A stretch of DNA of 64,000 nt, taken from assembly GCA_016710285.1 (NCBI GenBank), contig JADJXR010000001.1, positions 3,573,232 through 3,637,231 of the forward strand, given 5' to 3'. Below the pieces are notes generated by a model. It was not told where the DNA came from, made no database searches, and was given only the letters and a program-made list of their open reading frames with translations. Positions 3,801 to 63,698 of the stretch are shown in pieces. Numbering within the stretch: the stretch's first letter is position 1; each line of letters starts with the position of its first letter. Source of the stretch: Chlorobiota bacterium (lineage in GTDB: Bacteria > Bacteroidota > Ignavibacteria > OLB7). Position numbers and translations under genes: made by a program.

Positions 3801-3991
3801 CTGCCGAAGAGATGGAGGCCGCAGCGGCGGCGGTGGAAGCCGGCGGCGAAGAACCAGCACCACGCGGCGGCGGCGAATCGCAGCAGCCAGCAATCCAGAC
3901 GATGATGCGGGAGCAGCCCAAGATTGGCCGCAACGACCCTTGCTTCTGCGGCAGTGGGAAGAAATACAAGCATTGCCACGGGCGCTCCTGA
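829..3991 (+). CDS. secA: Preprotein translocase ATPase SecA, interrupted by an apparent -1 frameshift near 2926
   Basis: The N-terminal 732-aa ORF (829..3027) carries the DEAD motor and preprotein cross-linking domains ([10 protein letters not shown]..., [22 protein letters not shown]). The C-terminal ORF (2837..3991, other frame) continues [20 protein letters not shown] and ends in the Zn-finger [13 protein letters not shown]. The frames meet in the run cagggacccggggtcc. Confidence 0.9.
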
Positions 3992-4089
3992 TTGCTGCAA
4001 TCACATCGGCCCCGCACGCCGTTCGCTGCGGGGCCGGTGCACATCTCTTGCTTGTCACGACTCTCTCTCTCTCTCCTTCCAACAGATCA

Positions 4090-4608
4090 ATGTTCCAACC
4101 GCTCCGCCTTCTTCTGCTTGTTTTTCCATTGCTCCTTCTTTCGGTCCAGCACCGGGCCGCTGCGCAAGGTGGCGGGGGGCAGCCTGGTGGCGCGTTTGGC
4201 AGCGTTTATGATTTCACCGCCGGAGCTGGTTTCTCGATGGAGGTGAACATCTGGGGTGCGGTTGCGCGTCCCGGGCGGTACAAGGTTCCTTCATCCACCA
4301 CGCTTCTGCAACTGATCTCCTACGCCGGCGGTCCGGCTGCCGGACAAGCTGGCCCCAAGCCCAAACTTGATGAAGTTCGCGTTGTTCACGACCTGACGGT
4401 GGACAGCACCGTCAGCAAGCCGATTGAGGTGTATGATCTGGTGAAATACCAGCAAACCGCCGACACCACGCTGAACCCGAAGCTCTATCCAAACGACACC
4501 GTCATCATTCCCGAACAAGACGACACCTTCAATGAGGTGTTGGCGGTTATTCGGGATGTTGGGCTGGTGTTGGTCTCCATTCTTACCATCTACAACGGGG
4601 TCAAATAA
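4090..4608 (+). CDS. Periplasmic polysaccharide-export (Wza-like SLBB domain) protein
   Basis: Signal peptide MFQPLRLLLLVFPLLLL. SLBB-like segment VNIWGAVARPGRYKVPSSTTLLQLISYAGGP. Confidence 0.5.
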   Translation: MFQPLRLLLLVFPLLLLSVQHRAAAQGGGGQPGGAFGSVYDFTAGAGFSMEVNIWGAVARPGRYKVPSSTTLLQLISYAGGPAAGQAGPKPKLDEVRVVHDLTVDSTVSKPIEVYDLVKYQQTADTTLNPKLYPNDTVIIPEQDDTFNEVLAVIRDVGLVLVSILTIYNGVK

Positions 4609-7990: not shown

Positions 7991-9481
7991 ATGATGACGT
8001 TACGTGATGAACCAACGCTCCCGTTCCAGAACCTTGAACTTGTTCATGGCTGGGGCTTAAGCACCGATGCCGTGGGCTACGTCTTCCGCCCTTCCACGGT
8101 GGAGGGGATTCGGGAGGTTTTTGAGCTGGCGCAGCGCACCGGGCGGACGATTGCGTTCCGGGGGGCAGGGCGCAGCTACGGCGATGCGGCCTTGAATGCC
8201 GAGAACGTGGTGCTGGACCTTACCCGGTTCTGCCGAATCCTTGAATGGGACCCGCACACAGGGGTGATAAAAATGGAGTCGGGGGTGACGATCCGGCAAC
8301 TGTGGGAGTACGCGCTTCCCGATGGATGGTGGCCCCCAATCGTTCCCGGGACAATGTTCCCAACGCTGGGCGGGTGCGCCAGCATGAACATCCACGGCAA
8401 AAACAACTTTGCGGTTGGCCCAATCGGCGACCATATTCTTGAGTTCGAACTGCTGCTTCCAACCGGCCAGCATCTAACTTGTTCGCGCCAAGAAAACCGC
8501 GACCTTTTCTACGCCGCCATTGGCGGGTTCGGGATGTTGGGCTGCTTCACCAGCATCACCCTGAAACTGAAGAACGTCTATTCCGGCTACTTGAACGTGA
8601 AGGCCATCAACGTCCCAAACCTTGATGCCATGATTCGGGAGCTTGAGCAACGGATGGACGCTGCCGATTACTTAGTTGGGTGGATTGATGGATTGGCAGG
8701 GGGGAAGGGAATTGGGCGAGGGGTGATCCACGAAGCCAACTATCTGAAGCCTGGCCAGGACCCCAACCCCGCCCAGACCTTGCGGATCGAAAACCAACAG
8801 CTCCCCGACACCATTTTTGGATTGCTCCCAAAATCAACGCTTTGGCGGTTCATGCGGCCGTTTGTGAACAACGTTGGGGTTCGGTTCATCAACATGGCAA
8901 AGTTTTATGCAAGCCGGTTGTTGGATCGCGGAAAAATCTTCCAGCAGTCCCATGCTGCGTTCGCTTTTCTGCTGGACTATGTTCCAAACTGGAAGCGATC
9001 CTACGGGCGGGGCGGGCTGATTCAATACCAAAGTTTCATTCCGGAAGCCACTGCTGCCGAGGCTTTTAAAGCCCAGCTGCGGCTGGCGCAGAAGGCAGGG
9101 TATCCGCCATATTTGGCAGTGTTCAAACGCCACCGCCGCGATAATTTCCTGATGACCCACAGCGTTGATGGATACTCCCTGGCGTTGGATTTCAAAATCA
9201 CCAAAAGGAACCGCGCCGCAATTTGGAAACTGGCCTCCCAGCTTGATGAGGTTGTCCTGAAAGCCGGCGGGCGGTTTTACTTCGCGAAGGATAGCACGCT
9301 TCATGCCGCCAGTGCCGAGCAATATCTTGGCCGCGAGGCGGTTGAGCAGTTCATGGCACTGAAACGCCGCTGCGACCCGAACGGGCTGCTGGAAACCAAC
9401 CTTTACCGCCGCCTGTTCCCCGAATCGGAAGCGACGGCGAAACCAGAGGCACAGACCCAAGCCGGAACCGCCCAGCCATGA
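7991..9481 (+). CDS. FAD-binding (PCMH-type) oxidoreductase, DprE1/alditol-oxidase-like
   Basis: FAD_binding_4 region (RPSTVEGIREVFELAQRTGRTIAFRGAGRSYGDAAL) and a long substrate-domain C-half. It sits immediately downstream of the SDR gene. Confidence 0.65.
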   Translation: MMTLRDEPTLPFQNLELVHGWGLSTDAVGYVFRPSTVEGIREVFELAQRTGRTIAFRGAGRSYGDAALNAENVVLDLTRFCRILEWDPHTGVIKMESGVTIRQLWEYALPDGWWPPIVPGTMFPTLGGCASMNIHGKNNFAVGPIGDHILEFELLLPTGQHLTCSRQENRDLFYAAIGGFGMLGCFTSITLKLKNVYSGYLNVKAINVPNLDAMIRELEQRMDAADYLVGWIDGLAGGKGIGRGVIHEANYLKPGQDPNPAQTLRIENQQLPDTIFGLLPKSTLWRFMRPFVNNVGVRFINMAKFYASRLLDRGKIFQQSHAAFAFLLDYVPNWKRSYGRGGLIQYQSFIPEATAAEAFKAQLRLAQKAGYPPYLAVFKRHRRDNFLMTHSVDGYSLALDFKITKRNRAAIWKLASQLDEVVLKAGGRFYFAKDSTLHAASAEQYLGREAVEQFMALKRRCDPNGLLETNLYRRLFPESEATAKPEAQTQAGTAQP

Positions 9482-16284: not shown

Positions 16285-16535
16285 ACATCAGGGTTGCGAC
16301 TACACAGGTAGCCGCCCCGACCTCCGTCGGGGTTGATAAAAGGTCTTTAGCCTTCGGTGTCATCTGACTGGGCCCCGATAAAGATCGTGGCCGCTACCGT
16401 TCCGAAACTGCTGCCGCACAGGTAGCCGAAGGTCTTTAGCCTTCGGTGTCTTAGCCTTCGGCGTCATCTGACTGGGCCCCGATAAAGATCGGGGCCGCTA
16501 CCGTTTCGACAGATCGGGGTCGCTACCACCGGTGT
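16285..16535. repeat. Dispersed copies (about two units) of the 118-bp hairpin-repeat family found in tandem at 50160..51010
   Basis: Contains GTAGCCG(C/T)CCCGAC-NNNN-GTCGGG(A/G)TTGATAAAAGGTCTTTAGCCTTCGG and GGCCCCGATAAAGATCG(G)GGCCGCTACC modules. It lies between the convergent 3' ends of the thiolase and rlmD genes. Confidence 0.7.
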
Positions 16536-48833: not shown

Positions 48834-50188
48834 ATGATGAACTCACCCTCTTCACCTCCTTTTTTGTGGGTTGGCGGCGCGGTCTTGCTTGCACTTGCGC
48901 CGCTTCCATGGTTGGGGGATTTGCGCGCAGAGTTCTGGAGCTATCTGGCCTTGATGCTTCTATCAACGGTGCTGCTTGGGGTTGGCTGCTGGCTGGGCTT
49001 CAGGGGAAGGGGCGGGGACCTTCCGATTCGCCACATTCTGCTGGTTGCCGGGCTGCTTCGCCTGGCCATGCTTCCCATGATGCCTTCCCTTTCCGACGAT
49101 GCCTACCGCTACGTGTGGGATGGGCGGCTGCTTCTTCACGGAGAAAACCCGTACCACGTCACCCCCACGGAAACAGCCTGGAGGGATGAGCTGTTCCAGC
49201 TTCAAGGCTACCCCACCACTCACACGATTTATCCCCCCGCCGCACAGCTTCTGTTTGCCGCCGCCGCTGCCGTTGGTGAATTTTTTGGAGGGGCTTGGCA
49301 ATGGAGTTTCCTTGCTTGGAAGTTGATGGTGATCGCTGCCGATCTGTTGGCGGTGTACTTGCTGCTGCGGCTGCTTCGCGCGCAAGGGGTTCCGCTGGTG
49401 CGGGGGGTGATGTATGCTTGGCATCCGTTGGTGGTGGTGGAGCTTGCGGGCCAGGGCCATACCGACGCGTTGTGGGTGTTGGCAATCGCGCTTGGGCTGT
49501 GGGGGTTCGCTTCCGGGGGGGCGGGGAAGGGGTTGCCGGCGGTGGTGGTTGGGGGCGCGGCGCGGGTGTTTCCGCTTGTTGTTGCTCCGCTTTGGTTCCG
49601 TTTTTTGCCGCGCCGTCAGCTTCTTGTTGCGGTTGCTTGCGCGGCGTGCGGCGCGCTTCTGTTTGCGCCGTTTCTGACCCCGTGTCGGTGGAGAATTATG
49701 TTCGGGTGATGCTCCGGTTCACCAATTACTACGAGTTCAACGGGGGGGCATATCAAGCGGTGAAATGGGTGTTCGATGAACTCCATCTTCAGCCATCGAA
49801 CAGGATAGCGGGGGGGATATTGTTAGGGGTGCAGCTTGCTGCGTTTGGCCTTCTTTGGTTGCTTCCGGTTGCCGAGCGGTCGGTGCGTTCGCTTGCGTGG
49901 CGGATGTTGCTGCTGCTCAGTTTCCAGATCGTGCTTCCGGCAAAGGTCCATGTGTGGTATTTCGTTGCCCCGCTGTTCCTGCTCCCGATAACGTGGGGGC
50001 GCGGGCTGCGTTGGGGGTGGTGGTGGCTTTGCGCCGTTGCCCCGCTGACCTACTTCGCCTACTCTGGCTTGGCGGTTCGCGAGCCAACGTGGCTGCTGGC
50101 CGTTGAGTGGGGCGGCTTCGCGCTGCTGGTGCTGGCCGAACAAATGCGCCGAAGCGCCGGTAGCCGTCCCGACCTGCGTCGGGATTGA
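48834..50188 (+). CDS. GT87/DUF2029-like integral-membrane glycosyltransferase, apparently frameshifted near 49668-49680
   Basis: DDAYRYVWDGRLLLHGENPYHVTP motif in frame with 48834. The C-half (VSVENYVRVMLRFTNYYEFNG...) is in ORF 49295..50188 in another frame. The junction is at the cccc run in ctgaccccgtg. The last 10 codons and the stop lie inside the first repeat unit. Confidence 0.55.
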
Positions 50189-51010
50189 TAAAAGGTCTTT
50201 AGCCTTCGGTGTGTCGTCACTGGGCCCCGATAAAGATCGAGGCCGCTACCCCGACAGAGTCAGGGCTGCTAGCGCAGTGGTAGCCGTCCCGACCTGCGTC
50301 GGGATTGATAAAAGGTCTTTAGCCTTCGGTGTGTCGTCACAGGGCAGGCTAAAGACCTGCCGCTACCCCGACAGAGTCGGGGCTGGCGGTGGAACAGGTA
50401 GCCGTCCCGACATACGTCGGGATTGATAAAAGGTCTTTAGCCTTCGGCGTGTCGTCACAGGGCAGGCTAAAGACCTGCCGCTACCCCGACAGAGTCGGGG
50501 CTGGCGGTGGAACAGGTAGCCGTCCCGACATACGTCGGGATTGATAAAAGGTCTTTAGCCTTCGGCGACTCACTCTTGAGAAAGACAGGGCAGGCTAAAG
50601 ACCTGCCGCTACCCCGACAGAGTCGGGCTGGTGGTGAGACAGGTAGCCGTCCCGACCTGCGTCGGGATTGATGTCAGGCTGGCGATGGAACAGGTAGCCG
50701 AAGGTCTTTAGCCTTCGGCGTGTCGTCACAGGGCAGGCTAAAGACCTGCCGCTACCCCGACAGAGTTGGGCTGGCGATGGAACAGGTAACCGTCCCGACA
50801 TACGTCGGGATTGATAAAAGGTCTTTAGCCTTCGGCGTGTCGTCACTGGGCAGGCTAAAGACCTGTCGCTACCCCGATAGAGTTGGGCTGGCGGTGGAAC
50901 AGGTAGCCGTCCCGACATACGTCGGGATTGATAAAAGGTCTTTAGCCTTCGGCGTCATCCTCGCAAGAAAGACAGGGCAGGCTAAAGACCTGTCGCTACC
51001 CCGACTGGGT
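50160..51010. repeat. Tandem array of about eight copies of a roughly 118-bp GC-rich multi-hairpin repeat
   Basis: Units start at about 50161, 50281, 50399, 50517, 50644 (partial), 50693 (partial), 50786 and 50903. Each carries TCCCGAC-NNNN-GTCGGGA, AGGTCTTTAGCCT...AGGCTAAAGACCT and CCCCGAC-AGA-GTCGGGG palindromes. Confidence 0.85.
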
Positions 51011-51774: not shown

Positions 51775-51848
51775 GGGGTTATGGCACAGTTGGTTAGCGC
51801 GCTTCCTTGACATGGAAGAGGTCACAGGTTCGAGTCCTGTTAACCCCA
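51775..51848 (+). tRNA. tRNA-Val (anticodon GAC)
   Basis: Acceptor GGGGTTA/TAACCCC, D-arm GCACAGTTGGTTAGCGC, anticodon stem CTTCC/GGAAG with loop TTGACAT, T-arm CAGGTTCGAGTCCTG. Confidence 0.88.
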
Positions 51849-51850
51849 CA

Positions 51851-51962: not shown

Positions 51963-52875
51963 ATCATCAAGAAGGTAGCCGCCCCGACCTCCGTCGGGAT
52001 TGATAAAAGGTCTTTAGCCTTCGGTGTTCAGGCCGCGTTGGCTCCGTGCGTTGCTCCCCCTCTTGGGAGGGGCTGGGGGGTGGGTTTGGGGACACCCGCG
52101 AACCGGGTGTTGCTTTCCCGAATCTCAGGATCAGAAACTTCCCGTGCCACCGCAACCCCCGCGCCCTGCATTGCTTCCCCCGAACCCACCCCGCCCTATC
52201 GGGCACCCCTCCGTTGGAGGGGGACTACTTGTGAGGGTTCGGAGAAAACTCGCGGACGGGCTTGTGGGCGGCTCCCCCTCTTGGGAGGGGGCTAGGGGGT
52301 GGGTTTGGGGACACCCGCGAACCGAGCGTTGCTTTCCGAATCTCAGGATCAGGCAGGGCGGGGTAGTCGCAGGTCTTTAGCCTGCGCGGGGACACCCGCG
52401 AACCGGGCATTGCTTCCCGAATCTCAGGATCAGAAACTTCCCGTGCCACTGCAACCCCCGCGCCCTGCATTGCTTCCCCCGAACCCACCCCGCCCTATCG
52501 GGCACCCCTCCGTTGGAGGGGGACTACTTGTGAGGGTTCGGAGAAAACTCGCGGACGGGCTTGTGGGCGGCTCCCCCTCTTGGGAGGGGGCTAGGGGGTG
52601 GGTTTGGGGACACCCGCGAACCGAGCGTTGCTTTCCGAATCTCAGGATCAGGCAGGGCGGGGTAGTCGCAGGTCTTTAGCCTGCGCGGGGACACCCGCGA
52701 ACCGGGCATTGCTTCCCGAATCTCAGGATCAGAAACTTCCCGTGCCACTGCAACCCCCGCGCCCTGCATTGCTTCCCCCGAACCCACCCCGCCCTATCGG
52801 GCACCCCTCCGTTGGAGGGGGACTACTTGTGAGGGTTCGGAGAAAACTCGCGGGCGGGCTTTGTCAGACTTTCAG
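51963..52875. repeat. One family-1 partial unit followed by about 2.8 tandem copies of a roughly 299-bp composite GC-rich repeat
   Basis: Exact 299-bp periodicity: identical ORFs 52225..52488 and 52524..52787, and 52299..52679 versus 52598..52888. Internal palindromes CCCCTCTTGGGAGGGGG and CCCCTCCGTTGGAGGGGG. Twice-per-unit motif GGGGACACCCGCGAACCG...TCCGAATCTCAGGATCAG. Also contains GCAGGTCTTTAGCCTGC. Confidence 0.8.
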
Positions 52876-53502
52876 TTTCAAAAAATAAAGGTCGTTGATG
52901 TTATCCCACAAAAAAACATGGTCTTGTTTAAGTGAAAGGTCTGGTCCGTATGGTCTTTCTGTTTTATACCGTAGGATAGTTCCTGATTTATATTCTTTGC
53001 CGTGTCGAAAATCAAAATCTGATGTGTCTGGCGAATAGTTGCCCTGGTTGTAATAATGTGAATGATCTGTTGCAAGAATAAAATAGCAAAGGTCAATGCC
53101 ATGATCTTTGTATAATTCAAGGTTTGAAATGTCCTTGAATACATCATAACGATTATTAGGTTCTCGGTGATTCTCTTTCTTGAAAAACTTTAGTTCAAAA
53201 GCTGCTTTCGTTACAGTGCTATTGTCTTGGTAGCTTATCAGTATATCCACTCTTGCTCTGTCGGATTTGCTTTTTATGCTTGCTTCGTTGAGTGAAACGT
53301 ATGTCTCGAATTCAAGGTGAAATTTGTCAGCAAGTCTAAATTCATACAACCGCCCCAAAGTTTTTAGGATGTGTCCAAATTCAAGTTGAAAAGCATTTTC
53401 ATTTCTTGCTGTCAGCCCGCCAAAAGCAAGTTTATGAGTCAGGAGCTTGTATGCTGTCTCAATAATTTCTTCTGTCAGTCTAATTTGGTTTTCTTTTAGC
53501 AT
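52864..53502 (-). CDS. Hypothetical protein with a PD-(D/E)xK-like motif
   Basis: Low-GC codon usage. Segments FQLEFGHIL ... RVDILISYQDNSTVTKAAFELKFFK fit an E...D...ExK restriction-endonuclease-like pattern. Confidence 0.35.
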   Translation of the reverse strand: MLKENQIRLTEEIIETAYKLLTHKLAFGGLTARNENAFQLEFGHILKTLGRLYEFRLADKFHLEFETYVSLNEASIKSKSDRARVDILISYQDNSTVTKAAFELKFFKKENHREPNNRYDVFKDISNLELYKDHGIDLCYFILATDHSHYYNQGNYSPDTSDFDFRHGKEYKSGTILRYKTERPYGPDLSLKQDHVFLWDNINDLYFLKLKV

Positions 53503-53597
53503 TTATCAGGACGATGGTGCTTTATTCTCAACGCAAATGCGTTTTTTATTTTCAAGAACAGCAAGTGAGAGAAGGTCTTTAGTCTTCGGTTGTAAAA

Positions 53598-54089
53598 TCA
53601 GACCCCATGGTTAGCAACATTGTTTGTGATTTCGCTGGGGAGCAAGCTGTGCAAGTCAAACAACGGGAGGATAAGATTGGCGAAAGGAGTATTGGCAAGT
53701 TTGCTAAGTAGCAAACCTCGTGTGGTTCCTACAGATGCGCTGGTCATCGTCGCAGCAATCCATCCGGGAATTTCAATATTTCCCCCTGATTCCTTTAGGC
53801 CATGGATCTGATACTTGGAATTGGTTGTGATTGATGCCAGCATCCCTGATTTTGATTTTTTGTGTCCTTCCCATGAAATTTCTACAGAGATGATGAGCGT
53901 GGATGTCGCACCAGTAGCAGCATTAATACTACGCCGCACAGTGATGGCATAATGAATTCCACTGATCTCAGCTGGATCCGGATTGGAAATCTCGAATGTC
54001 TCAACGGAGCAGTCAGCAAAAACAAGGCCGATTGGGGGCGCGGCGGGGGGAGCATCTCCATTTTTAGAGCGAGAGTTTTTCTTGGCCAT
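53598..54089 (-). CDS. Hypothetical protein (163 aa), no recognisable domain
   Basis: ORF in the AT-rich island, co-directional with the TA genes. Low-complexity N-terminus. Confidence 0.3.
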   Translation of the reverse strand: MAKKNSRSKNGDAPPAAPPIGLVFADCSVETFEISNPDPAEISGIHYAITVRRSINAATGATSTLIISVEISWEGHKKSKSGMLASITTNSKYQIHGLKESGGNIEIPGWIAATMTSASVGTTRGLLLSKLANTPFANLILPLFDLHSLLPSEITNNVANHGV

Positions 54090-54564
54090 AGCTCTGCGAT
54101 TTTTGAGTTTTTGAAGAGATCATTTCGTTAGAATTATTAACGACAAGGGTTCCGAACTCATTGACGCTTTGTGAGCTTAGATGGAATGATTCAGAAGAAG
54201 AGAGCGGGGTGTTTGTCTTCCCGTAGGTGATAATGGTGGTTATGGAGCCATCACTATTTTTTAGTTTTTCAATCTGCCTGGTAAACGCTGTTGAGGCCAC
54301 GGCTTCGGGGAAATTTTGAGCTACTTCCAGCAACCGCCGCGCCGGTCCTTTTGGGCGGCGGCGGCCTTGTTCCCAGCCTTCAAGGGTGCGCTGGCTAATG
54401 CCCAGCATCAGCGCAAATTTTGCTTGGGACATCCCCATTTTGTTCCGAATCTCCTTCGCATCAGGAATTTGGTAGTAGGTAATGCGCGATGGCTGCTTTT
54501 TGCCTGCGCGTATCTCCTGCAAGTCGGAAAGTGCATGTTCCAACGATGTCAATAAGCTATCCAT
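54064..54564 (-). CDS. HTH (XRE-like) antitoxin, HigA-2/NadS-like
   Basis: IRNKMGMSQAKFALMLGISQRTLEGWEQGRRRPKGPARRLLEVAQNFPE matches antitoxins paired with Gp49/HigB-2-type toxins. It overlaps the toxin-like ORF by 8 nt. Confidence 0.6.
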   Translation of the reverse strand: MDSLLTSLEHALSDLQEIRAGKKQPSRITYYQIPDAKEIRNKMGMSQAKFALMLGISQRTLEGWEQGRRRPKGPARRLLEVAQNFPEAVASTAFTRQIEKLKNSDGSITTIITYGKTNTPLSSSESFHLSSQSVNEFGTLVVNNSNEMISSKTQKSQSYGQEKLSL

Positions 54565-54757
54565 GAAGATTTTTAATAATGGTTTGAAGGATGGTTATTT
54601 CTTCTCTTGTGAGGTCGCTTTTCTGCCGCTTGCTGTATGCCGCAATCAGGTAGATATCCCCTTGTCTGCTCCGATAGTAGTAGATCACCCTTGCACCGCC
54701 ACGTTTGCCCCCTTTATGTTGCTCCGTTAATGCCTCAAAGATAGCATGGTGTTTCAC
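54557..54757 (-). CDS. RelE/ParE-superfamily (Gp49/HigB-2-like) toxin, N-terminally short (66 aa, GTG start, in-frame stop immediately upstream)
   Basis: GGARVIYYYRSRQGDIYLIAAYSKRQKSDLTREEITILQTIIKNL matches the conserved C-terminal half of HigB-2/Gp49-like toxins. Confidence 0.5.
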   Translation of the reverse strand: MKHHAIFEALTEQHKGGKRGGARVIYYYRSRQGDIYLIAAYSKRQKSDLTREEITILQTIIKNLHG

Positions 54758-54845
54758 TAGTCAGAGAGGAAATGATTCCTTCCGTTGATTCCGTGATCCC
54801 ACCAAGTTGCTCCGCACCAACTTCATCCCTATGTTTGGCCCGCCG

Positions 54846-56915
54846 ATGAACGATCTACCAAACTCTCAACCCGCCAGCAACGCTCCAGAACCGGAGCCGC
54901 TGGAGCTTCCCCTTTCCTTGCAGGATAAGCTGAACAACCTTCCGCCGGACCCGGGGGTGTACCAGTATTTCGACCGCGACGGGAAGGTGATCTACGTTGG
55001 CAAGGCCAAAAACCTGCGCAACCGCGTCCGCAGCTACTTCCAGCAGGGCCGCCCGCACGACGCAAAAACCCGCGCACTGGTGGCGAAAATTGCCGACCTG
55101 CAGACCATCGTCACCGACTCCGCCGTCGAGGCCCTAATCCTTGAAGACACCCTGATTAAAAAACTGCGGCCACGCTACAACATCCTGCTGAAGGATGATA
55201 AAACGTACCCGTACATCCGCGTCACCAACGAGCCGTTCCCCCGCGTGTTCAGCACCCGAACCCGGGTCCGCGACGGCAGCCGCTACTTCGGTCCCTTCAC
55301 CGATGTGAAGTATGTCCGCTACTTGCTGAAAACCCTTCGCTCAATCTTCCCAATCCGCTCCTGCGACCTTACGTTGAACGATGAAACGATTGCCGCCGGC
55401 AAGTTCAAGGTCTGTTTGGATTTCCACATCGGGAAATGCCAAGGGCCATGCGAAGGATTGGTAAGCCAAGCCGACTACCGCGAAATGATCCGCCAAGTGA
55501 TGCAGGTCCTGAACGGAAAAACCCGCGAACTTGAACGCACCCTTGAGCTTGACATGGGCCACCTTGCCGAAGCGATGCGGTTCGAGGAAGCCGCCGCCAT
55601 GCGGAACCGTTTGCAGAAACTGCGCGAGTACAGCGGCAAGCAAAAAGTCGTCAGCGAGGACCTTACCGACCGCGACATCATTGCCTGCGTTGCCGAGGAC
55701 GACGACGCTTGCGCGGTGATCTTCCGCGTGCGCGACGGGCGGATGGTGGGGCGGCAGCACCATTACCTGAGCGGCGTGCTGCAGATGCCGCAGCCGGAAA
55801 TCCTCCGGAACGTTATCGAACGCCATTACTCCACCGCCGAGTCTATCCCCGAAGAATTGCTTCTGCCGATTGAGTTGGAGGACGATGGCGAGCTGATTGA
55901 GCGATTCCTAACCGACCGCCGCGCCGAAGGGAAGGTCCGGCTGGCGGTGCCGAAAATTGGCGACAAGCAGAAGCTGGTGGCAATGGCCCAGACGAACGCA
56001 AAGTTCCTGCTGGATGAGCTGAAGTTGCAGCGAATGAAACGGAGCGACATGGTCCCGCGCCCCGTGCAAAGCCTGCAGCGCGACTTGGGCCTGAAGAAAC
56101 CGCCGCGCCGGATTGAGTGCTTCGACAACTCCAATATCCAGGGGACCGACCCGGTTTCCTCCATGGTCTGCTTTGTGGACGGCCAGCCGCGCCGAAGCGA
56201 GTACCGGAAGTTCAACGTGAAAACCGTTGTTGGCCCGAACGATTTCGAGACGATGCGCGAGGTTGTTGGCCGCCGCTACCGCCGCGTGCTGAACGAAGGC
56301 CTTGCGCTTCCGGACCTGATTGTGATTGACGGCGGGAAAGGGCAGGTGGGGGCGGCAATGGAGGTGCTTCAGCAGCTGAACCTTGAGCATATCCCCCTGA
56401 TTGGATTGGCCAAACGATTGGAGGAAGTGGTGGTCCCGGGCCAGCGCGACACGTTGCTGTTGCCCCGTTCCTCCAGCAGCCTTCGGCTTCTGCAGCAAAT
56501 CCGCGACGAGGCTCACCGCTTTGCCATCACCTTCCACCGGACGCTTCGGAACCGGCGCACCTTGCAGACCGAGCTAACGAACGTCCCAGGAATCGGCACG
56601 AAAACGGCGCAAAAAATTTTTGAGACGTTCGGCTCCGTTCGCGGGGTCATTGCGGCCTCGTTGCAGGAATTGCAGCAGGTGCTGGGCCCCAAAACGGGGC
56701 AAGCCTTGCACGAGTACTTCCAGGCCAAAGCCGCCGCGCTCTCCGCCGCCGCCGCCGAAGAAGGCCCCGCAACCGACGAGCAAGAAGACGACATCCAACT
56801 GATGAGCGACGACGGCCAATTGGAGGGGGATGAAGAAATGGAGCGCGATGAAGAACGCAACGGAGATGCGGAGGAAGAGCCGGAAGAGTTCGCCGGGGAA
56901 GGGGAATTGGAGTAG
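54846..56915 (+). CDS. uvrC: Excinuclease ABC subunit C with an unusual acidic C-terminal tail
   Basis: GIY-YIG (GVYQYFDRDGKVIYVGKAKNLRNR), UvrBC-interaction region, RNaseH-like endonuclease domain, (HhH)2, then about 70 aa of D/E-rich tail. Confidence 0.9.
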   Translation: MNDLPNSQPASNAPEPEPLELPLSLQDKLNNLPPDPGVYQYFDRDGKVIYVGKAKNLRNRVRSYFQQGRPHDAKTRALVAKIADLQTIVTDSAVEALILEDTLIKKLRPRYNILLKDDKTYPYIRVTNEPFPRVFSTRTRVRDGSRYFGPFTDVKYVRYLLKTLRSIFPIRSCDLTLNDETIAAGKFKVCLDFHIGKCQGPCEGLVSQADYREMIRQVMQVLNGKTRELERTLELDMGHLAEAMRFEEAAAMRNRLQKLREYSGKQKVVSEDLTDRDIIACVAEDDDACAVIFRVRDGRMVGRQHHYLSGVLQMPQPEILRNVIERHYSTAESIPEELLLPIELEDDGELIERFLTDRRAEGKVRLAVPKIGDKQKLVAMAQTNAKFLLDELKLQRMKRSDMVPRPVQSLQRDLGLKKPPRRIECFDNSNIQGTDPVSSMVCFVDGQPRRSEYRKFNVKTVVGPNDFETMREVVGRRYRRVLNEGLALPDLIVIDGGKGQVGAAMEVLQQLNLEHIPLIGLAKRLEEVVVPGQRDTLLLPRSSSSLRLLQQIRDEAHRFAITFHRTLRNRRTLQTELTNVPGIGTKTAQKIFETFGSVRGVIAASLQELQQVLGPKTGQALHEYFQAKAAALSAAAAEEGPATDEQEDDIQLMSDDGQLEGDEEMERDEERNGDAEEEPEEFAGEGELE

Positions 56916-59490: not shown

Positions 59491-62124
59491 ATGAAACGTT
59501 CTCTCTACTTCCTTGCCATCCTGATCGCCATGATCGTTTGGCCTTCGTCTTCTGGGAAGGCGCAGGTGAAGGATTCCGTCTATGTAATTGAGCAGTTGGG
59601 GCTGAATCCTTACGAGTGCTGCTACGGGTTCATCCTGCAAAGCCGCCAGCCCAAAGGGACCAAGATTGATGAGTTCCGCGTGCGGATTATTGAAGGGGAT
59701 GGCAAGTTCCTTACCGGCCAGTCCAGTTCCCCGTTTCGGTGGCTGGTGTTCCAGGATTACGACAGCGTGCGCTGGCTGACCAGCACCGCTTCGGCCGAGC
59801 TTGACAGCGGCCAGATTGCGCAAGGCTTCAACGTCTGCGCCCGCAACGTTGGCGTGTTGGTGATGGTGTGGGAGACGCGCTATCTGGAGGAGGTCCGCAG
59901 CCGCGACACCATCCGCGTTGTTTGCACGGGGCGCACCGGTTGCGACGAACCGTTCTTCCGCCCAATCCCCAGCGGATCCATTTGCGCGTTTGATGTTGAC
60001 CTTATTGCTGGCAACCCAGAGCAGCGTGTCGTCAACGATTTCCATGTTCGGGTTGCAAGCGGCGGGGTGGCATTCAACACCGCGGCGATTGCTTCGCAGG
60101 GGCGGCAGCCTGCCGGGTGGACGCGCTTCAAAACCAAAGCGGACACGCTTAGCTGGCGAACCATCAACAACGGCTTGACGCAGCCGCAGTTCGCCGAAGG
60201 GTTCCGATTCTTCTTGGATGTACAGCCCGATTCCGCAATCATCATTGAATGGTGGACAACGAACTTCGGCGAAGTTCTTTGCCGTGGGTTCGACACCTTA
60301 GTCTGCGGGCTGCAGGCGCCCGACAGCATCCAGTTCAGCCGCGTTCCGGTCAATGGAGATAGCTGTTGCTTGGACCTGCAGATGCGGAACACCCACAAAC
60401 CAAAGTCGAAGTTGAATGGCTTTGCTGTGAAGATCACCACTCCCAAAGCACGCTTTAGCGGAAGCCCAATTCCCCCAGCCGGGTGGTCAACCGCCGGGGC
60501 CAATGCCGCCGGGGACTCCATCTATTTTTCCACGGCGAACGGGCTGGCTCCCAATCTTGCAGCCTTGTTCAGGGGGGTCTGCTTCGATAACAACCTCTCC
60601 AGCACCGACACCGTGCGGTTCCAGGTGGAGACATTCAGCAGCGGGATCAGCGTCACGAAAGGGACGGGATCGCTCTACTGCCAGCGGAAGCTGGTTTTCT
60701 GCGACAGCATCAGCGCGACGGTGGATTCCACCTATCCATCGGCGGTTCGCTGCATCCGGTTTGCGGTGAACAACACCAATTCCCGAAGTGATGAGATTGA
60801 GAGAGTGGTGATGCGGTTCCGCAATGCTGGCACGCCGCGCCGGGTGGTGGCGGCATCGGGACCGGCTGGGTGGCAGGTGGCGTTCGGGGGGGATTCGGCG
60901 GTCTTCTTCGGCAACATTGTTTACCCGGGGGAACGCCTCCCTGGGTTCAGCGCGTGCTTGACGTTGGGAGACAGCACAACGAAGGACCCGCTTGGCATCT
61001 ACTGGGAGACCTCCAACACCACGCGGAGCATCTGCCGGGACACGATCAAGGTGAATGCCATTATCACCCGTGGGTGCGATAACATCAGCGCGACCGAGCT
61101 TCCGGCAACCGAGCCGCAGATTGCTTGCTTCAAGGTTTCGCTGAACGCAGCCAACCAGTTCAACAAACCGGTGACGCGGTTTACGATTGCCATCCCGGGC
61201 ACGAAGACCATCTTCACCAATGCCACAACGCCAAGCGGGTGGAAGTTGGTGGACGATGCGTTCCCATTGTTCGATCTTGATTTTGCCGACGGGAATTTGC
61301 CAATCGGCGGAACCGTGGCCACCGATGTCTGCTTTAACGTCTCGCAGCTTGGCAAGCCGCCGCTGGCAATCCCGGTGGTCTGGACAACCTACAGCGGAAC
61401 AACGCTGATCTGCCAGGACACCTTGCGAATCGCCTATCAGGGGAATCAGGTGGACCCGGTGTGTGACACGATCACCATTGCCAACACCGCAACGGACCCT
61501 GAGCAGGGGAAATGCACGTATGCGATTACCATCAAGAATCGGCACAACAATCCAACCGGTCCAATCAATGGATTCCGCGTGAAGGTTACGGGGGGGAAGG
61601 GAGGCTTTGCCGCTGCCGATGCGGCAGGGGGGGGATGGACAGCAACGGTGGGGCGTAGCGAAGTTCAGTTTAGCGGAGGAGTGATTCCTGCTGGTGAGGA
61701 ACGAAGCAGCTTCACCGTGGTGATAGATTCCAGCGACGGCAACCCGGTTCGCATCGAGGCCGTTGCCTTGACTGACGGCACCCCACGTTGCGCAACCCAG
61801 CTGACGGTTTCCTGCCAGCCGCCAACAACGGATGCTCCGTTGGCCGGCGAAGAACCCGCAGGGAAATGGCTAAGCGTCACCCCGAACCCCGTTGCCCACA
61901 CAATGGCGGTGGAATACCGCTGGCCAGCGGCTGGAAGGCTGGCCCTCCGTCTTCGCGATGCCACAGGGGCAACGGTTTTGCAGGAATCGGCGGTGGTGTT
62001 GGCTCCTGGGTCGTCATCGCGGTTGCAGCTTTCCACAACCGAACTTCCTTCCGGCATCTACTATCTCAGCCTTGACGACGGGCGCGCCCCGGCAATAACC
62101 CAGCGGGTGGTTGTGGTTCGGTAA
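59491..62124 (+). CDS. Secreted protein with four internal roughly 150-aa repeats and a T9SS C-terminal sorting domain
   Basis: Signal peptide. Repeated modules each carrying GF(R/A)VK(I/V)T...P(A/S)GW and Cys pairs. C-terminal Por tail (LSVTPNPVAHTMAVEYRW...SGIYYLSLDDG...VVVVR). Confidence 0.6.
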   Translation: MKRSLYFLAILIAMIVWPSSSGKAQVKDSVYVIEQLGLNPYECCYGFILQSRQPKGTKIDEFRVRIIEGDGKFLTGQSSSPFRWLVFQDYDSVRWLTSTASAELDSGQIAQGFNVCARNVGVLVMVWETRYLEEVRSRDTIRVVCTGRTGCDEPFFRPIPSGSICAFDVDLIAGNPEQRVVNDFHVRVASGGVAFNTAAIASQGRQPAGWTRFKTKADTLSWRTINNGLTQPQFAEGFRFFLDVQPDSAIIIEWWTTNFGEVLCRGFDTLVCGLQAPDSIQFSRVPVNGDSCCLDLQMRNTHKPKSKLNGFAVKITTPKARFSGSPIPPAGWSTAGANAAGDSIYFSTANGLAPNLAALFRGVCFDNNLSSTDTVRFQVETFSSGISVTKGTGSLYCQRKLVFCDSISATVDSTYPSAVRCIRFAVNNTNSRSDEIERVVMRFRNAGTPRRVVAASGPAGWQVAFGGDSAVFFGNIVYPGERLPGFSACLTLGDSTTKDPLGIYWETSNTTRSICRDTIKVNAIITRGCDNISATELPATEPQIACFKVSLNAANQFNKPVTRFTIAIPGTKTIFTNATTPSGWKLVDDAFPLFDLDFADGNLPIGGTVATDVCFNVSQLGKPPLAIPVVWTTYSGTTLICQDTLRIAYQGNQVDPVCDTITIANTATDPEQGKCTYAITIKNRHNNPTGPINGFRVKVTGGKGGFAAADAAGGGWTATVGRSEVQFSGGVIPAGEERSSFTVVIDSSDGNPVRIEAVALTDGTPRCATQLTVSCQPPTTDAPLAGEEPAGKWLSVTPNPVAHTMAVEYRWPAAGRLALRLRDATGATVLQESAVVLAPGSSSRLQLSTTELPSGIYYLSLDDGRAPAITQRVVVVR

Positions 62125-62144
62125 TCGTCGTGCATTGGCAGTTC

Positions 62145-62185
62145 AACGGGGCTACGGTCAGCAACCGTAGCCCCGTTGTATTGTG
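62145..62185 (+). terminator. Rho-independent terminator after the T9SS cargo gene
   Basis: AACGGGGCTACGG-TCAGCAA-CCGTAGCCCCGTT followed by a T-rich GTATTGTG. Confidence 0.5.
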
Positions 62186-62327
62186 AAGAGTTTATGTGTA
62201 CGATTCTCGGATGTTGTTGTAAAATCAAACAGCCATCAGATGAAAAAAAATCAACAGAAAACGCCGAAATTTGCTTAAAAAGAAGGATTCTGGATTGTCA
62301 AAAACTTCACCAGGGGTTAAAAAATCG

Positions 62328-62359
62328 TTGACAACAGGATTTCGGCCATAGTAGTTTTG
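62328..62359 (+). promoter_or_regulatory. Bacteroidota-type sigma-A-like promoter motif (TTG ... TAnnTTTG)
   Basis: TTGACAACAGGATTTCGGCCATAG-TAGTTTTG, with 21 nt between TTG and the -7 box. This is a motif match only. Confidence 0.2.
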
Positions 62360-62885
62360 TATGCTAAACGCACGAGCAAGAAACCACGTTAGTGGATGAT
62401 GAGGCTGGGAATTGGGGCAACTGGATATCGAATGTGTGGCTGAAGGCTTGGGGATACTGGAAGAATCCCCAATTTTTCGCGAAAATTGCAACACCGCCAT
62501 CCCATCCCTTCGTTGTTTCTTCGACTTTATCAAAATGACAGAGGCAGGATTGCGCTGCTAAATCACAGCGTACTCTTGTGAAGAATGGGGGGCTACGGCG
62601 TAGATATGGGCGATAATCAGCCACAATGGATGGCACAATGGGGAGCGAAAAGTAGTAGAACAGAAAGTCTGAGACACTTCTTTTCAAAAGCCGACAAGGT
62701 CTATACTTGGGTGGTCGAAATCCAGATTACAAGCATGGCACGGTAATTGATGTGATCTACGTGCAAGTCTTTACTGGGCTTGTTCAAGACGCACAACATC
62801 AATGGGCAATGCCAGTAGAAGAAGCGGCCCTCTGTCTCGGCAGCGTATGGCACCCATCGTAAGAAACAGACGGGAGAGCGATTAA

Positions 62886-63698
62886 GTGAACGTTTTCAAA
62901 CTGCATAGCTGGCCAACTCCTGTATTGGTTCTGCTATCACTAATGGTCGGAACAGTGGCGTTTGCCCAGACTGCTCAAACTGCTCGTTTGGGGTCGGGAA
63001 CGGAAGCACAGGCAGAGAATCCAACGTTATCAACCCAACGTTCGGGCATCCAATTGATGGGGGTTACGCCACCATCACCAGGGGTAAGCACTGCACCGAT
63101 GGTTGATATTTATGGGCACATGGGGGTTGGAACGCTGCAACCGGATATTTCCGCAGCAATTGACATTTCATCGGCTCATGCAGGGCTGCTGATCCCGCGA
63201 TTGACGCAAGCGCAACGGGACTCTATCTATCTCCCTGCAACAACCCTGCTGATCTTTAATCAGACGTCGTTCCAGTTTGAGTACAACGACAGCACGCCGG
63301 TAAACCCACATTGGGTTCCGTTTCTAAACGGGCATTCCATTATCGGGTTCAACATGATTGGAACCGGAACAAATCAAGGGCAAACCTTGAATGTGGGGAA
63401 TGGATCGGTGCTTCAGCCAACTGGCACGGGGATTGTAATTGCTAACCAAATCAATGGGGCAGGGGCGAACAAGTTTGCTGGCGCAATACCGATCCCCGAC
63501 GGAACCACGGATCTTGACATCGCATACACGGGGCTTCAAGCAAATGCAGTGGTTGTGGTCTCCATCAGCGACCCAACGTTTCCAGGGGTGGTGACAACAA
63601 CCACCGAAAAAAATCCTGGAATTGGATTTACGGTTCACTTTGCAAGCCCATACCCGGGAACAACCGGAACCCTTGATTACGTGGTGATTAACCCGTAA
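62886..63698 (+). CDS. Hypothetical secreted protein
   Basis: Signal peptide MNVFKLHSWPTPVLVLLSLMVGTVAFAQ. Thr/Gly-rich beta-type sequence. Lower GC (about 50%) than the window average. Confidence 0.35.
   Translation: MNVFKLHSWPTPVLVLLSLMVGTVAFAQTAQTARLGSGTEAQAENPTLSTQRSGIQLMGVTPPSPGVSTAPMVDIYGHMGVGTLQPDISAAIDISSAHAGLLIPRLTQAQRDSIYLPATTLLIFNQTSFQFEYNDSTPVNPHWVPFLNGHSIIGFNMIGTGTNQGQTLNVGNGSVLQPTGTGIVIANQINGAGANKFAGAIPIPDGTTDLDIAYTGLQANAVVVVSISDPTFPGVVTTTTEKNPGIGFTVHFASPYPGTTGTLDYVVINP

Follow-up and report, generated by a model that had tools for sequence, protein, structure and literature searches.

The window, the 64,000-nt stretch of Chlorobiota DNA that was analysed in full, carries between a tRNA-Val gene and uvrC an islet with a GC content of 37–50%, against about 60% in its flanks. 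A sequence-only reading of the window had called two ORFs in this islet on the minus strand, one of 212 aa (52864–53502) and one of 163 aa (53598–54089), and both were confirmed. They share the strand of, and lie downstream of, a RelE-like/HTH gene pair at 54064–54757. The features of the region, with the letters T, A and C for the toxin, antitoxin and chaperone genes of a predicted TAC operon, are listed here.

52864..53502, minus strand: 212-aa ORF, lone gene for a predicted PD-(D/E)xK-fold nuclease
53503..53597: 95-nt spacer between the 212-aa and 163-aa genes
53598..54089, minus strand: 163-aa ORF, predicted SecB-fold chaperone (C) of the TAC operon
54064..54564, minus strand: gene of the 166-aa HTH antitoxin (A)
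54067..54291, minus strand: 75-aa C-terminal extension of the antitoxin (residues 92–166), candidate chaperone-addiction (ChAD) region
54557..54757, minus strand: 66-aa ORF, remnant of a RelE (PF06296)/HigB2-type toxin (T)
54719..54723: deletion junction with GCAA microhomology, where 305 bp are absent relative to the sister strain

Both of the ORFs called by that reading are foreign, defence-flavoured DNA. The GC content is 36.5% in the 212-aa gene and 47.8% in the 163-aa gene, and at third codon positions (GC3) it is 33% in the 212-aa gene, 46–53% in the TAC genes and 77% in uvrC. An Rfam scan returned the tRNA as its sole match. We rejected the idea of an island integrated at tRNA-Val and flanked by att repeats, as the end of the tRNA is not repeated directly around the islet and an integrase is absent. 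The two proteins had been described as lacking obvious family matches. This is borne out for Pfam and NCBIfam, in which neither protein has a match at E ≤ 1, and a search of PHROGs likewise matched neither; it does not hold for the 163-aa protein in PADLOC, where the model PDC-M64C (PDLC04763) matches it (E = 3e-9) along with all 33 members of its family. The same defence database, at E ≤ 1, gave no system model (PADLOC-DB v2) for the 212-aa protein.

The AF2 model of the 163-aa protein (pLDDT 86.8) has four long strands and a long helix arranged in the SecB topology. When this model was compared with the PDB by Foldseek, the top 22 matches were all SecB or Mycobacterium tuberculosis Rv1957 (probability 1.00, E-values 6e-5 to 4e-3), with moderate TM-scores of about 0.5–0.6; they include the SecB structures 1fx3, 1ozb, 1qyn and 5jtl, and 5mtw, the SecB-like chaperone Rv1957 with a ChAD peptide. 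Sequence comparisons were negative throughout: Pfam SecB (PF02556) matched 0 of 33 family members, a PDB profile search with the family alignment yielded no SecB and chance matches to YajQ and AFG2, and an hhalign comparison of the family with verified E. coli SecB was non-significant (E = 0.03, probability 1.7%). Since significant sequence similarity to SecB is lacking, the assignment of this protein rests on the predicted fold, whose topology is simple, together with gene context.

In the window the toxin remnant, antitoxin and SecB-like genes are co-oriented and overlapping on the minus strand, the start of the 163-aa gene overlapping the antitoxin gene by 26 nt. Wherever the upstream gene is visible (the window/CHB2 pair, P0123, P0124, P0125, P0126, P0130, P0132, P0134 and P0141), an antitoxin-type HTH_3, HTH_37 or HicB gene directly precedes the SecB-like gene, usually overlapping it (9/9), and all nine of these antitoxins carry a C-terminal extension of 55–110 aa. 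The gene before the antitoxin, where visible, encodes a RelE, Gp49/HigB, HicA or unidentified toxin, and the SecB-like genes follow antitoxins of at least four TA families. The intact order of toxin, antitoxin and SecB-like gene occurs in the sister strain Chlorobi CHB2 (L084, 2620–3911; 111, 166 and 162 aa) and at L080, L082, L083, L089, L090 and L096. Because the SecB-like genes in these nine contexts always follow extended antitoxins, we assign the 163-aa protein, on its modelled fold and its gene context, as a probable, highly divergent SecB-fold chaperone of a TAC operon. The sequence-only reading had cast it as the partner of a nuclease; on this assignment its gene belongs, in third place, to the very TA operon that this reading had set apart from it.

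The antitoxin has two parts. Residues about 1–90 form a NadS/MqsA-type Xre HTH domain (Pfam HTH_3, 2e-9, and MqsA_antitoxin, 3.5e-3; NCBIfam NadS, 1.6e-18, aligning protein residues 3–88 with profile positions 6–87 of 94), and the NadS and MqsA profiles both stop at about residue 88–90 of 166, which leaves the extension outside. The extension is rich in Ser (20%) and Thr (12%), carries the aromatic residues F94, Y114, F127, F137 and Y159, and contains two hydrophobic, beta-prone patches, ITTIITY and TLVV. Its motif F94..N103-x-D105..T109..T113 is common to relatives at 37–64% identity, and homologues of the antitoxin are always found upstream of a SecB-like gene. These properties make residues 92–166 a candidate ChAD region.

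The toxin gene has been cut down. Alignment with intact toxins of 106–111 aa reveals that only the C-terminal ~54 codons of the 66-aa ORF are toxin (residues about 58–111 of 111), and that its first ~12–13 codons are former upstream non-coding DNA, now fused in frame; the Pfam RelE match (1.2e-5) covers profile positions 50–100 of 120 only. Pairwise DNA alignment with the CHB2 locus (L084) maps a 305-bp deletion, and blastn blocks break at 54719 and 54722. The deletion took the first ~57 toxin codons and the ~130 bp ahead of the gene, in which the promoter is expected. A functional toxin gene is absent from the window and present in CHB2. An exact look-up of the 66-aa remnant in other assemblies found no record, and the deletion is known from a single assembly. 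With the 5′ half of the toxin gene gone, and the DNA ahead of it as well, the TAC module of the window is, judged by its sequence, a degenerate and disarmed remnant, its toxin dead and its antitoxin and chaperone genes intact.

The 212-aa protein had been suggested to have a restriction-endonuclease fold on the strength of an E...D...ELK pattern, and conservation, modelled topology and fold searches all support this. The pattern is not a matter of chance: D86, E103, K105, E35/Q39 and E66 are each kept in all or at least 97% of 64 homologues, whose identity ranges down to 42%. D86 and E103-x-K105 are the putative catalytic residues; the block N111-x-REPNNRYD120 is conserved as well, and N127xxxY131 is a possible further motif. 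Structure prediction, a check which the sequence-only reading had proposed for both proteins, gave the SecB fold described above for the 163-aa protein and a PD-(D/E)xK core for this one. The AF2 model (pLDDT 90.2) has an alpha-beta-beta-beta-alpha-beta core (elements H35-52, E60-70, E82-92, E97-107, H116-132 and E138-145; a-a-b-b-b-a-b with a further helix). The D lies on strand 2 and the ExK on strand 3; the first helix and strand 1 carry conserved acidic residues. Foldseek matches of the model belong almost all to the PD-(D/E)xK superfamily, dominated by Cas4, RecB-like proteins, BamHI, DrdV and CinB, at E-values that are weak: the best in BFVD is a Cas4 (5.6e-5, probability 1.00), followed mostly by proteins annotated as PD-(D/E)XK, exonuclease or UL24, and the best in the PDB, where the matches are Cas4 SSO0001, AddB, BamHI, DrdV, PaqCI and CinB, reaches just 6e-3. 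A PDB profile search with the family alignment returned a chance match to BCL10 only. The protein is thus confidently modelled as a PD-(D/E)xK fold and is a putative Mg2+-dependent nuclease.

Its family is large and patchily distributed, in the manner of a horizontally spreading gene. A first search recovered 597 homologues, and a profile search that included divergent members recovered 973 clusters, with no Pfam-annotated relative among the 120 matches listed and none among those listed for the first search. DNA homology of the gene to other genomes is limited to 52859–53514, that is, it ends with the ORF. Comparison with CHB2 gives a dN/dS of 0.09 for the 212-aa gene and the same value for the antitoxin, indicating purifying selection on both. 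The family has no fixed partner, in that no Pfam family occurs in more than two of about 60 immediate neighbours. PADLOC models matched PD-T7-1, PD-T7-5, ThsB, an Argonaute-associated TIR, DRT, IetA, LmuB, PDC-S73 and methyltransferases among the neighbours of the homologues, and many homologues adjoin housekeeping genes (selO, tRNA synthetases, an ammonium transporter). Since its neighbours often include defence genes, a role as a stand-alone defence nuclease is plausible; the nuclease activity and the defence role are both putative. We rejected an origin as a phage or plasmid gene: the family has 0 matches among 50,697 phage records, 1 match in 2.9 million viral contigs and two weak matches on Sphingobium plasmids, one of which, on inspection, has an IS3 transposase gene for a neighbour and no annotation on its own strand.

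The two neighbouring ORFs have separate histories. The TAC cassette is homologous to L080 as far as 53596, and the homology of the 212-aa cassette stops at about 53508–53514, leaving a seam of about 80 nt between the homology blocks. The 95-nt spacer has homology to the sister strain only and to no other locus, and at 53566–53590 it holds a fragment (88% match) of a dispersed repeat of the host genome, TGATAAAAGGTCTTTAGCCTTCGGT, whose copies in the window number 11, with 0 expected. On the coding strand of the spacer no terminator or promoter scored above shuffled controls, and the z-score for RNA folding was −0.9. By this pattern of homology, the spacer is the seam of two independently acquired cassettes. 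Homologues of the 163-aa protein, the antitoxin or the toxin were found within ±8 kb of the 212-aa homologue at 0 of 79 other loci, and none of the 11 other loci with a member of the 163-aa family has a 212-aa homologue; the two occur together only at the orthologous locus of CHB2 (L084–L087).

These counts weigh heavily against a dedicated two-gene anti-phage module of nuclease and partner, as the sequence-only reading had proposed. That reading took absence of co-occurrence elsewhere as grounds for giving the module up, and outside the sister strain the two genes do not co-occur. The adjacency of the genes on one strand, 95 nt apart and both in foreign low-GC DNA, and the conservation of this arrangement in CHB2 are what such a module would show, yet the 163-aa gene shares 26 nt with the antitoxin gene and follows antitoxins in the contexts seen, the GC3 values of the two genes are unequal, and a host repeat parts their distinct blocks of homology; we regard the module as very improbable. 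A related possibility is a lineage-specific unit of four genes in OLB7 and CHB2, in which the nuclease was recruited behind the TAC operon and is co-transcribed with it, as a second effector or under regulation by the HTH antitoxin. Because the spacer is short, the strand shared and a terminator undetectable, co-transcription of the 212-aa gene with the TAC genes is possible, and all four genes are found together in two strains with the low dN/dS values given above. The 212-aa family, however, occurs elsewhere without TAC genes, and the gene is unlike them in composition. It is also intact in the window despite the deletion upstream of the TAC operon, which argues against dependence on a TAC promoter, and a four-gene unit therefore seems quite unlikely to us.

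Two further alternatives concern the function of one protein each. The 163-aa protein might be SecB-like in fold and yet not an antitoxin chaperone, acting instead as a direct inhibitor of the toxin, as a phage sensor with some different output or as a structural component of PDC-M64. The lack of SecB sequence homology would suit such a role, PDC-M64 is itself a prediction only, and a member of the family carries fused TPR repeats and has as its neighbour the gene of an EAD11/CHAT protease, not a TA pair. Extended antitoxins before this family across at least four TA families are, however, as the chaperone-addiction model predicts and are hard to explain otherwise, and the best structural matches include the chaperone of the M. 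tuberculosis TAC, which leaves a non-chaperone role unlikely. For the 212-aa protein, the alternative is a restriction endonuclease of the ordinary Type II sort, its methyltransferase either lost or encoded at another locus. One UniRef entry names a homologue 'Restriction endonuclease', the fold has weak similarity to BamHI, PaqCI and DrdV, and a DNA methyltransferase gene adjoins the homologue at a few loci (at L001 an N6_N4_Mtase gene lies 144 nt upstream). These cases are few: Pfam identifies 2 DNA methyltransferases among 60 upstream neighbours (one N6_N4_Mtase, one D12-class) and none among the 25 families listed for the downstream neighbours (n = 59), PADLOC finds MTase_II in a minority of 119 neighbours, and the islet of the window has none. 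With methyltransferases so rarely adjacent, a classical Type II restriction-modification pair was rejected. The family also retains 72–83% identity across phyla, its members coming from Bacteroidota, Acinetobacter, Chlorobi and other groups, whereas much faster divergence is usual for Type II enzymes; we consider an ordinary Type II enzyme improbable.

The explanation that we favour, and hold to be probable as a whole, is that two unrelated cassettes, each acquired independently, came to lie head to tail by chance and make up the islet as a mosaic. Cassette 1 (53596–54757 plus the deleted part) would be a TAC operon of a RelE/HigB2-type mRNA-interferase toxin, an Xre/NadS-type antitoxin and a SecB-fold chaperone. 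If it works as M. tuberculosis HigBA1-SecB(TA) and E. coli HigBAC do, an antitoxin with this extension would be aggregation-prone or unstable unless bound by a SecB-like tetramer; were the chaperone lost, or titrated by a phage protein for instance, the toxin would be freed. Cassette 2 (52859–53514) would be a solitary nuclease gene from a large, horizontally spreading family, most likely coding for a Mg2+-dependent DNA endonuclease that may act as a solo, restriction-like defence factor with no cognate methyltransferase. More speculative is a joint claim, tentative at best: that the 212-aa family is an undescribed, single-gene, methyltransferase-independent PD-(D/E)xK defence nuclease that spreads as a bare ORF-sized cassette, and that the PDC-M64C family is a branch of SecB orphaned in sequence.

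In place of a supposed novel two-gene system, this analysis offers a testable assignment for a 163-aa protein annotated only as hypothetical, and links PDC-M64C, which is functionally unexplained in PADLOC, to the SecB/TAC mechanism. If the models are right, TAC chaperones include a clade that the Pfam SecB model misses, and sequence-based censuses of TACs may therefore undercount them. In E. coli, TACs are proven anti-phage systems in which the chaperone is the phage sensor, and new chaperone clades could bring new sensing specificities. Should PDC-M64C prove to be a SecB branch, the TAC paradigm, possibly with chaperone-based phage sensing, would in environmental phyla take in RelE, HigB, HicA and a novel 160-aa toxin; PDC-M64 would then be explicable as a TAC. 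The 212-aa family, being small, solitary and widespread with an intact nuclease motif, is a cheap and reasonable candidate for phage screens. The locus is also a clean example of TA decay, in which the toxin and the upstream region are gone and the antitoxin and chaperone are kept.

Among known systems, the 212-aa protein resembles the PD-(D/E)xK superfamily (Cas4/RecB-family proteins, BamHI and the nuclease domains of DrdV, PaqCI and CinB) in its modelled core, with the D on strand 2 and the ExK on strand 3. Unlike Cas4 it has no Fe-S cysteine cluster, and unlike fused PD-(D/E)xK enzymes no helicase, methyltransferase or reader domain; its REPNNRYD block and a small C-terminal subdomain rich in aromatic residues set its family apart from other PD-(D/E)xK proteins, as does the absence of a profile match in Pfam, NCBIfam, PADLOC and the PDB. 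Stand-alone defence nucleases (Type IV-like or single-gene) offer a parallel in gene organisation: the gene is solitary and patchily distributed, has no conserved methyltransferase and often has defence genes nearby. It differs from Type IV-like nucleases in having no recognisable reader domain for modified bases, and from the single-gene systems of PADLOC in matching none of them and in having many copies among housekeeping genes.

With PDC-M64 the islet has one component in common. This system is a candidate predicted by 'guilt by embedding' (Payne et al., bioRxiv 10.1101/2024.01.29.577857); the main text of that study mentions neither SecB nor chaperones, and its supplement gives PDC-M64 as cassettes of numbered families without annotation. 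No mention of PDC-M64 was found in the main text of the literature searched. The full PDC-M64 cassette is present at a relative, L090, where it comprises a 159-aa unannotated protein, an HTH protein and a SecB-like protein. The 163-aa protein and its 33 relatives share the PDC-M64C component, whereas the toxin and antitoxin of the window match none of the PDC-M64 models, and therefore the third component alone is shared.

The TACs provide the broader comparison. SecB sequence signal is undetectable in the 163-aa family, and the antitoxin extension, unlike the ChAD of M. tuberculosis HigA1, is without a Trp-based motif and has instead a conserved N-x-D-G-x-x-T-x-I and F/Y residues. The window differs from functional TACs in its truncated toxin and in the deletion of the expected promoter region. 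As in M. tuberculosis HigB1-HigA1-SecB(TA) (Rv1955–1957) and E. coli HigBAC and CmdTAC, the genes run in the order toxin, antitoxin, chaperone, and they overlap (PMC5105189; PMC6377645; bioRxiv 10.1101/2024.02.24.581848). The components correspond as well: a toxin of the RelE/HigB superfamily, an HTH antitoxin with a long, low-complexity C-terminal extension and a third protein with a predicted SecB fold. The hallmark of TACs is that one chaperone family serves several TA families and their extended antitoxins (PMC5105189; bioRxiv 10.1101/2024.02.24.581848), and the 163-aa family likewise pairs with RelE-HTH, Gp49/HigB-HTH_37, HicAB and unidentified-HTH systems.

Two open reading frames lie on a 1.9-kb islet whose GC content is 37–50%, as against ~60% in its surroundings, and both are present exactly as the sequence-only reading had described them; we call their products p212 and p163. 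That reading had also seen, by eye, no obvious family match for either protein. This holds for Pfam and NCBIfam, where neither has a match at E≤1, and fails for p163 in PADLOC, where a single model is matched, PDC-M64C (E 3e-9), which represents the third component of the phage-defence candidate PDC-M64. Both database entries (KXK52314.1 and KXK52313.1; Chlorobi bacterium OLB7) are labelled hypothetical. The islet and its flanks comprise:

51775–51849: tRNA-Val(GAC), on one flank of the islet together with GC-rich tandem repeats
52864–53502, minus strand: p212 ORF, 212 aa
53598–54089, minus strand: p163 ORF, 163 aa
54064–54564, same strand, upstream: HTH protein (antitoxin), 166 aa; Pfam HTH_3 2e-9, NCBIfam NadS 1.6e-18, weak MqsA_antitoxin
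54557–54757, same strand, upstream: RelE-like ORF, 66 aa; matches RelE (PF06296) at positions 50–100 only, of 120
54807–56915: uvrC, on the opposite flank

The islet is a mosaic of two foreign cassettes from different sources, p212 alone and a toxin-antitoxin-chaperone (TAC) operon that includes p163, whose gene shares 26 nt with that of the antitoxin. Other genomes match p212 at the DNA level over window positions 53508–52859, that is, the ORF plus ~6 nt per side, and similarity of the TAC genes to a homologous locus (L080) stops at 53596, two bases beyond the p163 stop codon; the ~80 nt between these blocks have a counterpart in the sister strain only. GC3 is 33% in p212, 46–53% in the TAC genes, and 77% in uvrC. 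An 88% copy of a 25-nt motif, represented 11 times across the window (0 expected), lies at the seam (53566–53590); on the other side, two bases separate the p212 stop codon from the final copy of a 299-bp host tandem repeat, which ends at 52861. The two cassettes had come together before OLB7 and its sister strain CHB2 diverged. The proposal that p212 and p163 form a dedicated nuclease-plus-partner module for anti-phage defence is rejected on these separate homology blocks, on the differing GC3, and on a tblastn search in which homologues of p163, the antitoxin, and the toxin were absent within ±8 kb of p212 at all 79 genome loci; p212 and p163 homologues occur together on four sister-strain contigs only, an accident of adjacency.

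GC-rich tandem arrays lie on either side of the tRNA-Val gene (50159–50955 and 52088–52861), one with a 117–118-nt unit in two blocks (~4.3 and 2.2 copies) bearing CCCGAC...GTCGGG hairpins, the other with a 299-nt unit (2.6 copies, 98% identity). They have in common an 18–25-nt core, AAGGTCTTTAGCCTTCGG, found also at 16340, 16429, 52007, and 53572 and totalling 11 copies across the window, where 0 are expected. Neither arrays nor core match Rfam, and together they resemble a REP/MITE-like repeat family particular to this host. The p163/p212 spacer holds a hairpin, AACGCA-AA-TGCGTT (53530–53543, plus strand), followed by TTTTTATTTT; it is terminator-like on the non-coding plus strand only and does not exceed shuffle expectation. 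Toward the window end, GC falls again (45–49% vs ~60% at 62000–63000), which may mark another foreign islet.

The predicted structure of p163 resembles that of SecB. The AF2 model (pLDDT 86.8, pTM 0.80, from a 33-sequence alignment) consists of four long antiparallel strands, then a 23-residue helix, and finally a short C-terminal segment. Its best 22 Foldseek matches in the PDB are exclusively SecB (H. influenzae 1fx3, 1ozb; E. coli 1qyn, 5jtl) or M. tuberculosis Rv1957, a SecB-like chaperone that in 5mtw binds the peptide of HigA1's chaperone-addiction (ChAD) extension; all have probability 1.00, with E 6e-5 to 4e-3 and TM ~0.5–0.6. Sequence methods miss the relationship: no family member matches Pfam SecB, a profile search of PDB sequences with the p163 family found nothing, and hhalign against E. 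coli SecB (SecB sequence confirmed against 5jtl, E 6e-103) gave E 0.03. The modelled link to SecB is therefore one of fold and context, without demonstrable sequence homology.

Close p163 homologues are scarce, with 3 clusters in 5.8 billion proteins, and an exhaustive phmmer search yielded 33 distant representatives of 130–180 aa, all 33 of which match PDC-M64C (best E 1.5e-25). At every locus whose context was recovered, the p163-type gene is directly preceded, usually with overlap, by a gene for an antitoxin-type DNA-binding protein that carries a long C-terminal tail, which places p163 in the toxin-antitoxin operon. RelE, Gp49/HigB, HicA, and unknown toxins are all paired with this one chaperone family.

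Gene order at loci with p163-type genes (toxin position; antitoxin; SecB-like protein).
L080/L081: RelE 111 aa; HTH_3 168 aa; 168 aa
L082: RelE 108 aa; HTH_3 206 aa; 168 aa
L083: RelE 106 aa; HTH_3 165 aa; 164 aa
L084–L087 (sister strain CHB2): RelE 111 aa; HTH_3 166 aa; 162 aa
L089: HicA 85 aa; HicB 157 aa; 160 aa
L090/L091: unknown protein 159 aa; HTH_3 150 aa; 149 aa
L096: Gp49/HigB 111 aa; HTH_37 171 aa; 167 aa
L097: contig ends; HTH_3 at least 143 aa; 167 aa
L098: contig ends; HTH_37 at least 128 aa; 172 aa

TAC systems are defined by a SecB-like chaperone gene 3′ of a TA pair, by antitoxins that come from several families (HigA, MqsA, HicB) and carry a variable C-terminal ChAD extension, and by the modular exchange of chaperone and extension between TA families (PMC5105189; PMC6377645; bioRxiv 10.1101/2024.02.24.581848). 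In the window antitoxin the HTH domain stops near residue 90 and is followed by a 75-residue tail (20% Ser, 12% Thr). Aromatics stand at residues 94, 114, 127, 137, and 159, and ITTIITY and TLVV form two beta-prone patches of hydrophobic character; the motif F94..N103-x-D105..T109..T113 is kept in antitoxins of just 37–64% identity. Because this tail and the use of one chaperone family for several toxins fit the published features, we assign p163, on its modelled fold, as the putative chaperone of a RelE/HigB2-Xre-SecB TAC; it would thus be a new, sequence-orphan member of the known TAC chaperone class. By analogy we infer that its peptide groove would hold the antitoxin extension, keeping the antitoxin soluble and active. 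The toxin would be set free once something titrated the chaperone away; a structural protein of a phage could do so, as shown for HigC with lambda gpV. The SecB-like module may also have a different role, unconnected with TA pairs, in a conflict system: at L093, a 444-aa protein (P0138, 2072–3406) fuses an N-terminal PDC-M64C domain to TPR repeats and its gene adjoins one for an EAD11/CHAT caspase-like protease (3457–4476), not a TA pair.

In this genome the TAC module is broken and disarmed. Alignment with the CHB2 locus L084 (94–96% identity) reveals a clean 305-bp deletion in the window (one assembly), with its junction at 54722/54723 and GCAA at either end of the deleted segment. Lost are ~130 bp 5′ of the toxin gene, the expected location of its promoter, together with ~57 codons at the start of the 111-codon toxin gene; in the 66-aa ORF that is left, the C-terminal ~54 toxin residues are joined in frame to former non-coding DNA. 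The antitoxin and chaperone genes are intact. Between the window and CHB2, dN/dS is 0.09 for the antitoxin (3 non-synonymous, 10 synonymous changes), p212, and uvrC, and 0.37 for p163, only a hint that the chaperone gene is less constrained, since substitution counts are small.

The restriction-endonuclease fold proposed for p212 is borne out by its conservation and model. Searches returned 597 (single-sequence) and 973 (profile) homologous clusters, with no Pfam domain among the matches listed. Nearly all homologues are 212 aa, 72–83% identical across taxa that include Chryseobacterium/Epilithonimonas, Flavobacterium, Chitinophagales, Acinetobacter, Nafulsella, Armatimonadota, and one archaeal MAG. 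Across 64 non-redundant sequences with identity down to 42%, E35, Q39, E66, D86, E103, K105, the block N111-x-R-E-P-N-N-R-Y-D120, and E129, Y131, T145, H147, H149, Y150, and W199 are ≥97% conserved. The AF2 model (pLDDT 90.2, pTM 0.89) shows the canonical alpha-beta-beta-beta-alpha-beta core, in which strand 2 carries D86 and strand 3 carries E103-x-K105. Foldseek matches are weak and nearly all PD-(D/E)xK superfamily nucleases: in the PDB, Cas4 SSO0001, AddB, BamHI, DrdV, PaqCI, and CinB/CidB (best E 6e-3), and in BFVD, Cas4 (E 5.6e-5, probability 1.00), then many 'PD-(D/E)XK', exonuclease, or UL24 entries. With low confidence, N127xxxY131 may be the counterpart of the QxxxY motif in RecB/Cas4-type nucleases; it lies on the helix that follows the ExK strand. 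The model thus predicts a genuine PD-(D/E)xK-fold protein, and p212 represents a new, unannotated family inside that superfamily.

The gene travels widely, in varied company. At 60 non-redundant loci no Pfam family recurs in more than 2 of ~60 neighbours, upstream or downstream; the upstream neighbour is oriented like p212 in 50. Among the neighbours are housekeeping genes (selO, glyQ, argS, metG, amt) and genes for transposases and integrases; defence proteins, too, are notably frequent: PD-T7-1, PD-T7-5, two ThsB, two Argonaute-associated TIR proteins, DRT/RT, IetA, LmuB, HEC-06, PDC-S11, PDC-S15, PDC-S73, GmrSD, nSTAND3, and several MTase_II. None of 50,697 phage records contains a member of the family, and 2.9 million viral contigs hold one relative (38% identity). 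Two Sphingobium plasmids give weak matches; the one inspected adjoins an IS3 transposase gene and is unannotated on its own strand. An 83%-identical copy on a 4.6-kb contig of a Candidatus Methanofastidiosum MAG (L001, 2991–4456), either an inter-domain transfer or a binning artefact, has an N6_N4 DNA methyltransferase gene 144 nt upstream, which makes this one of the few loci with an adjacent methyltransferase. In Acinetobacter lwoffii and relatives (L021–L036, around 8001–8636) the gene keeps a constant chromosomal position, 19 nt 3′ of a gene encoding ~481 aa that is probably selO (two of the upstream neighbours match SelO in Pfam, individual loci unmapped). This shows insertion among housekeeping genes followed by vertical inheritance within the genus; three of these copies are shortened to 161 aa.

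We tentatively favour p212 as a stand-alone restriction-like DNA endonuclease acting in defence, because it retains an intact catalytic triad and because its gene stands alone, spreads horizontally, is almost absent from phages, and often has defence genes next to it; no methyltransferase travels with it, so the enzyme may be modification-dependent or otherwise self-sparing. Against this stand the lack of a reader domain and of database precedent, and the many copies among housekeeping genes. It is improbable that p212 is a Type II enzyme whose methyltransferase is unlinked; a classical Type II pair is argued against by the scarcity of DNA methyltransferases, of which Pfam finds only two among upstream neighbours (one N6_N4_Mtase, one D12-class) and none among the families listed downstream. 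Coupling to the TAC operon in this lineage only seems highly improbable, and a repair or other cellular nuclease is unlikely because the distribution is patchy. As a candidate defence endonuclease, p212 offers a compact nuclease for experimental screening.

PADLOC's PDC systems are candidates predicted from their embedding in BREX, DISARM, or Type I R-M loci, and the supplement presents PDC-M64 as numbered-family cassettes only (Payne et al., bioRxiv 10.1101/2024.01.29.577857); the words 'SecB' and 'chaperone' are absent from the main text. All three proteins of the L090 operon match PDC-M64 models: the 159-aa protein (283–762; also at L091), which has no Pfam match, hits PDC-M64A/B at 1e-27 to 1e-32, the HTH protein reaches 5e-30, and the SecB-like protein matches as well. 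PDC-M64 thus resembles a TAC whose toxin is a novel 160-aa protein, and the 159-aa protein, which sits where a TAC-like operon has its toxin, is a candidate for a new family of toxins. PADLOC's PDC-M64C would thereby gain a functional explanation. Neither the toxin nor the antitoxin of the window matches PDC-M64 models, and the chaperone is the sole component that PDC-M64 and the window operon have in common.
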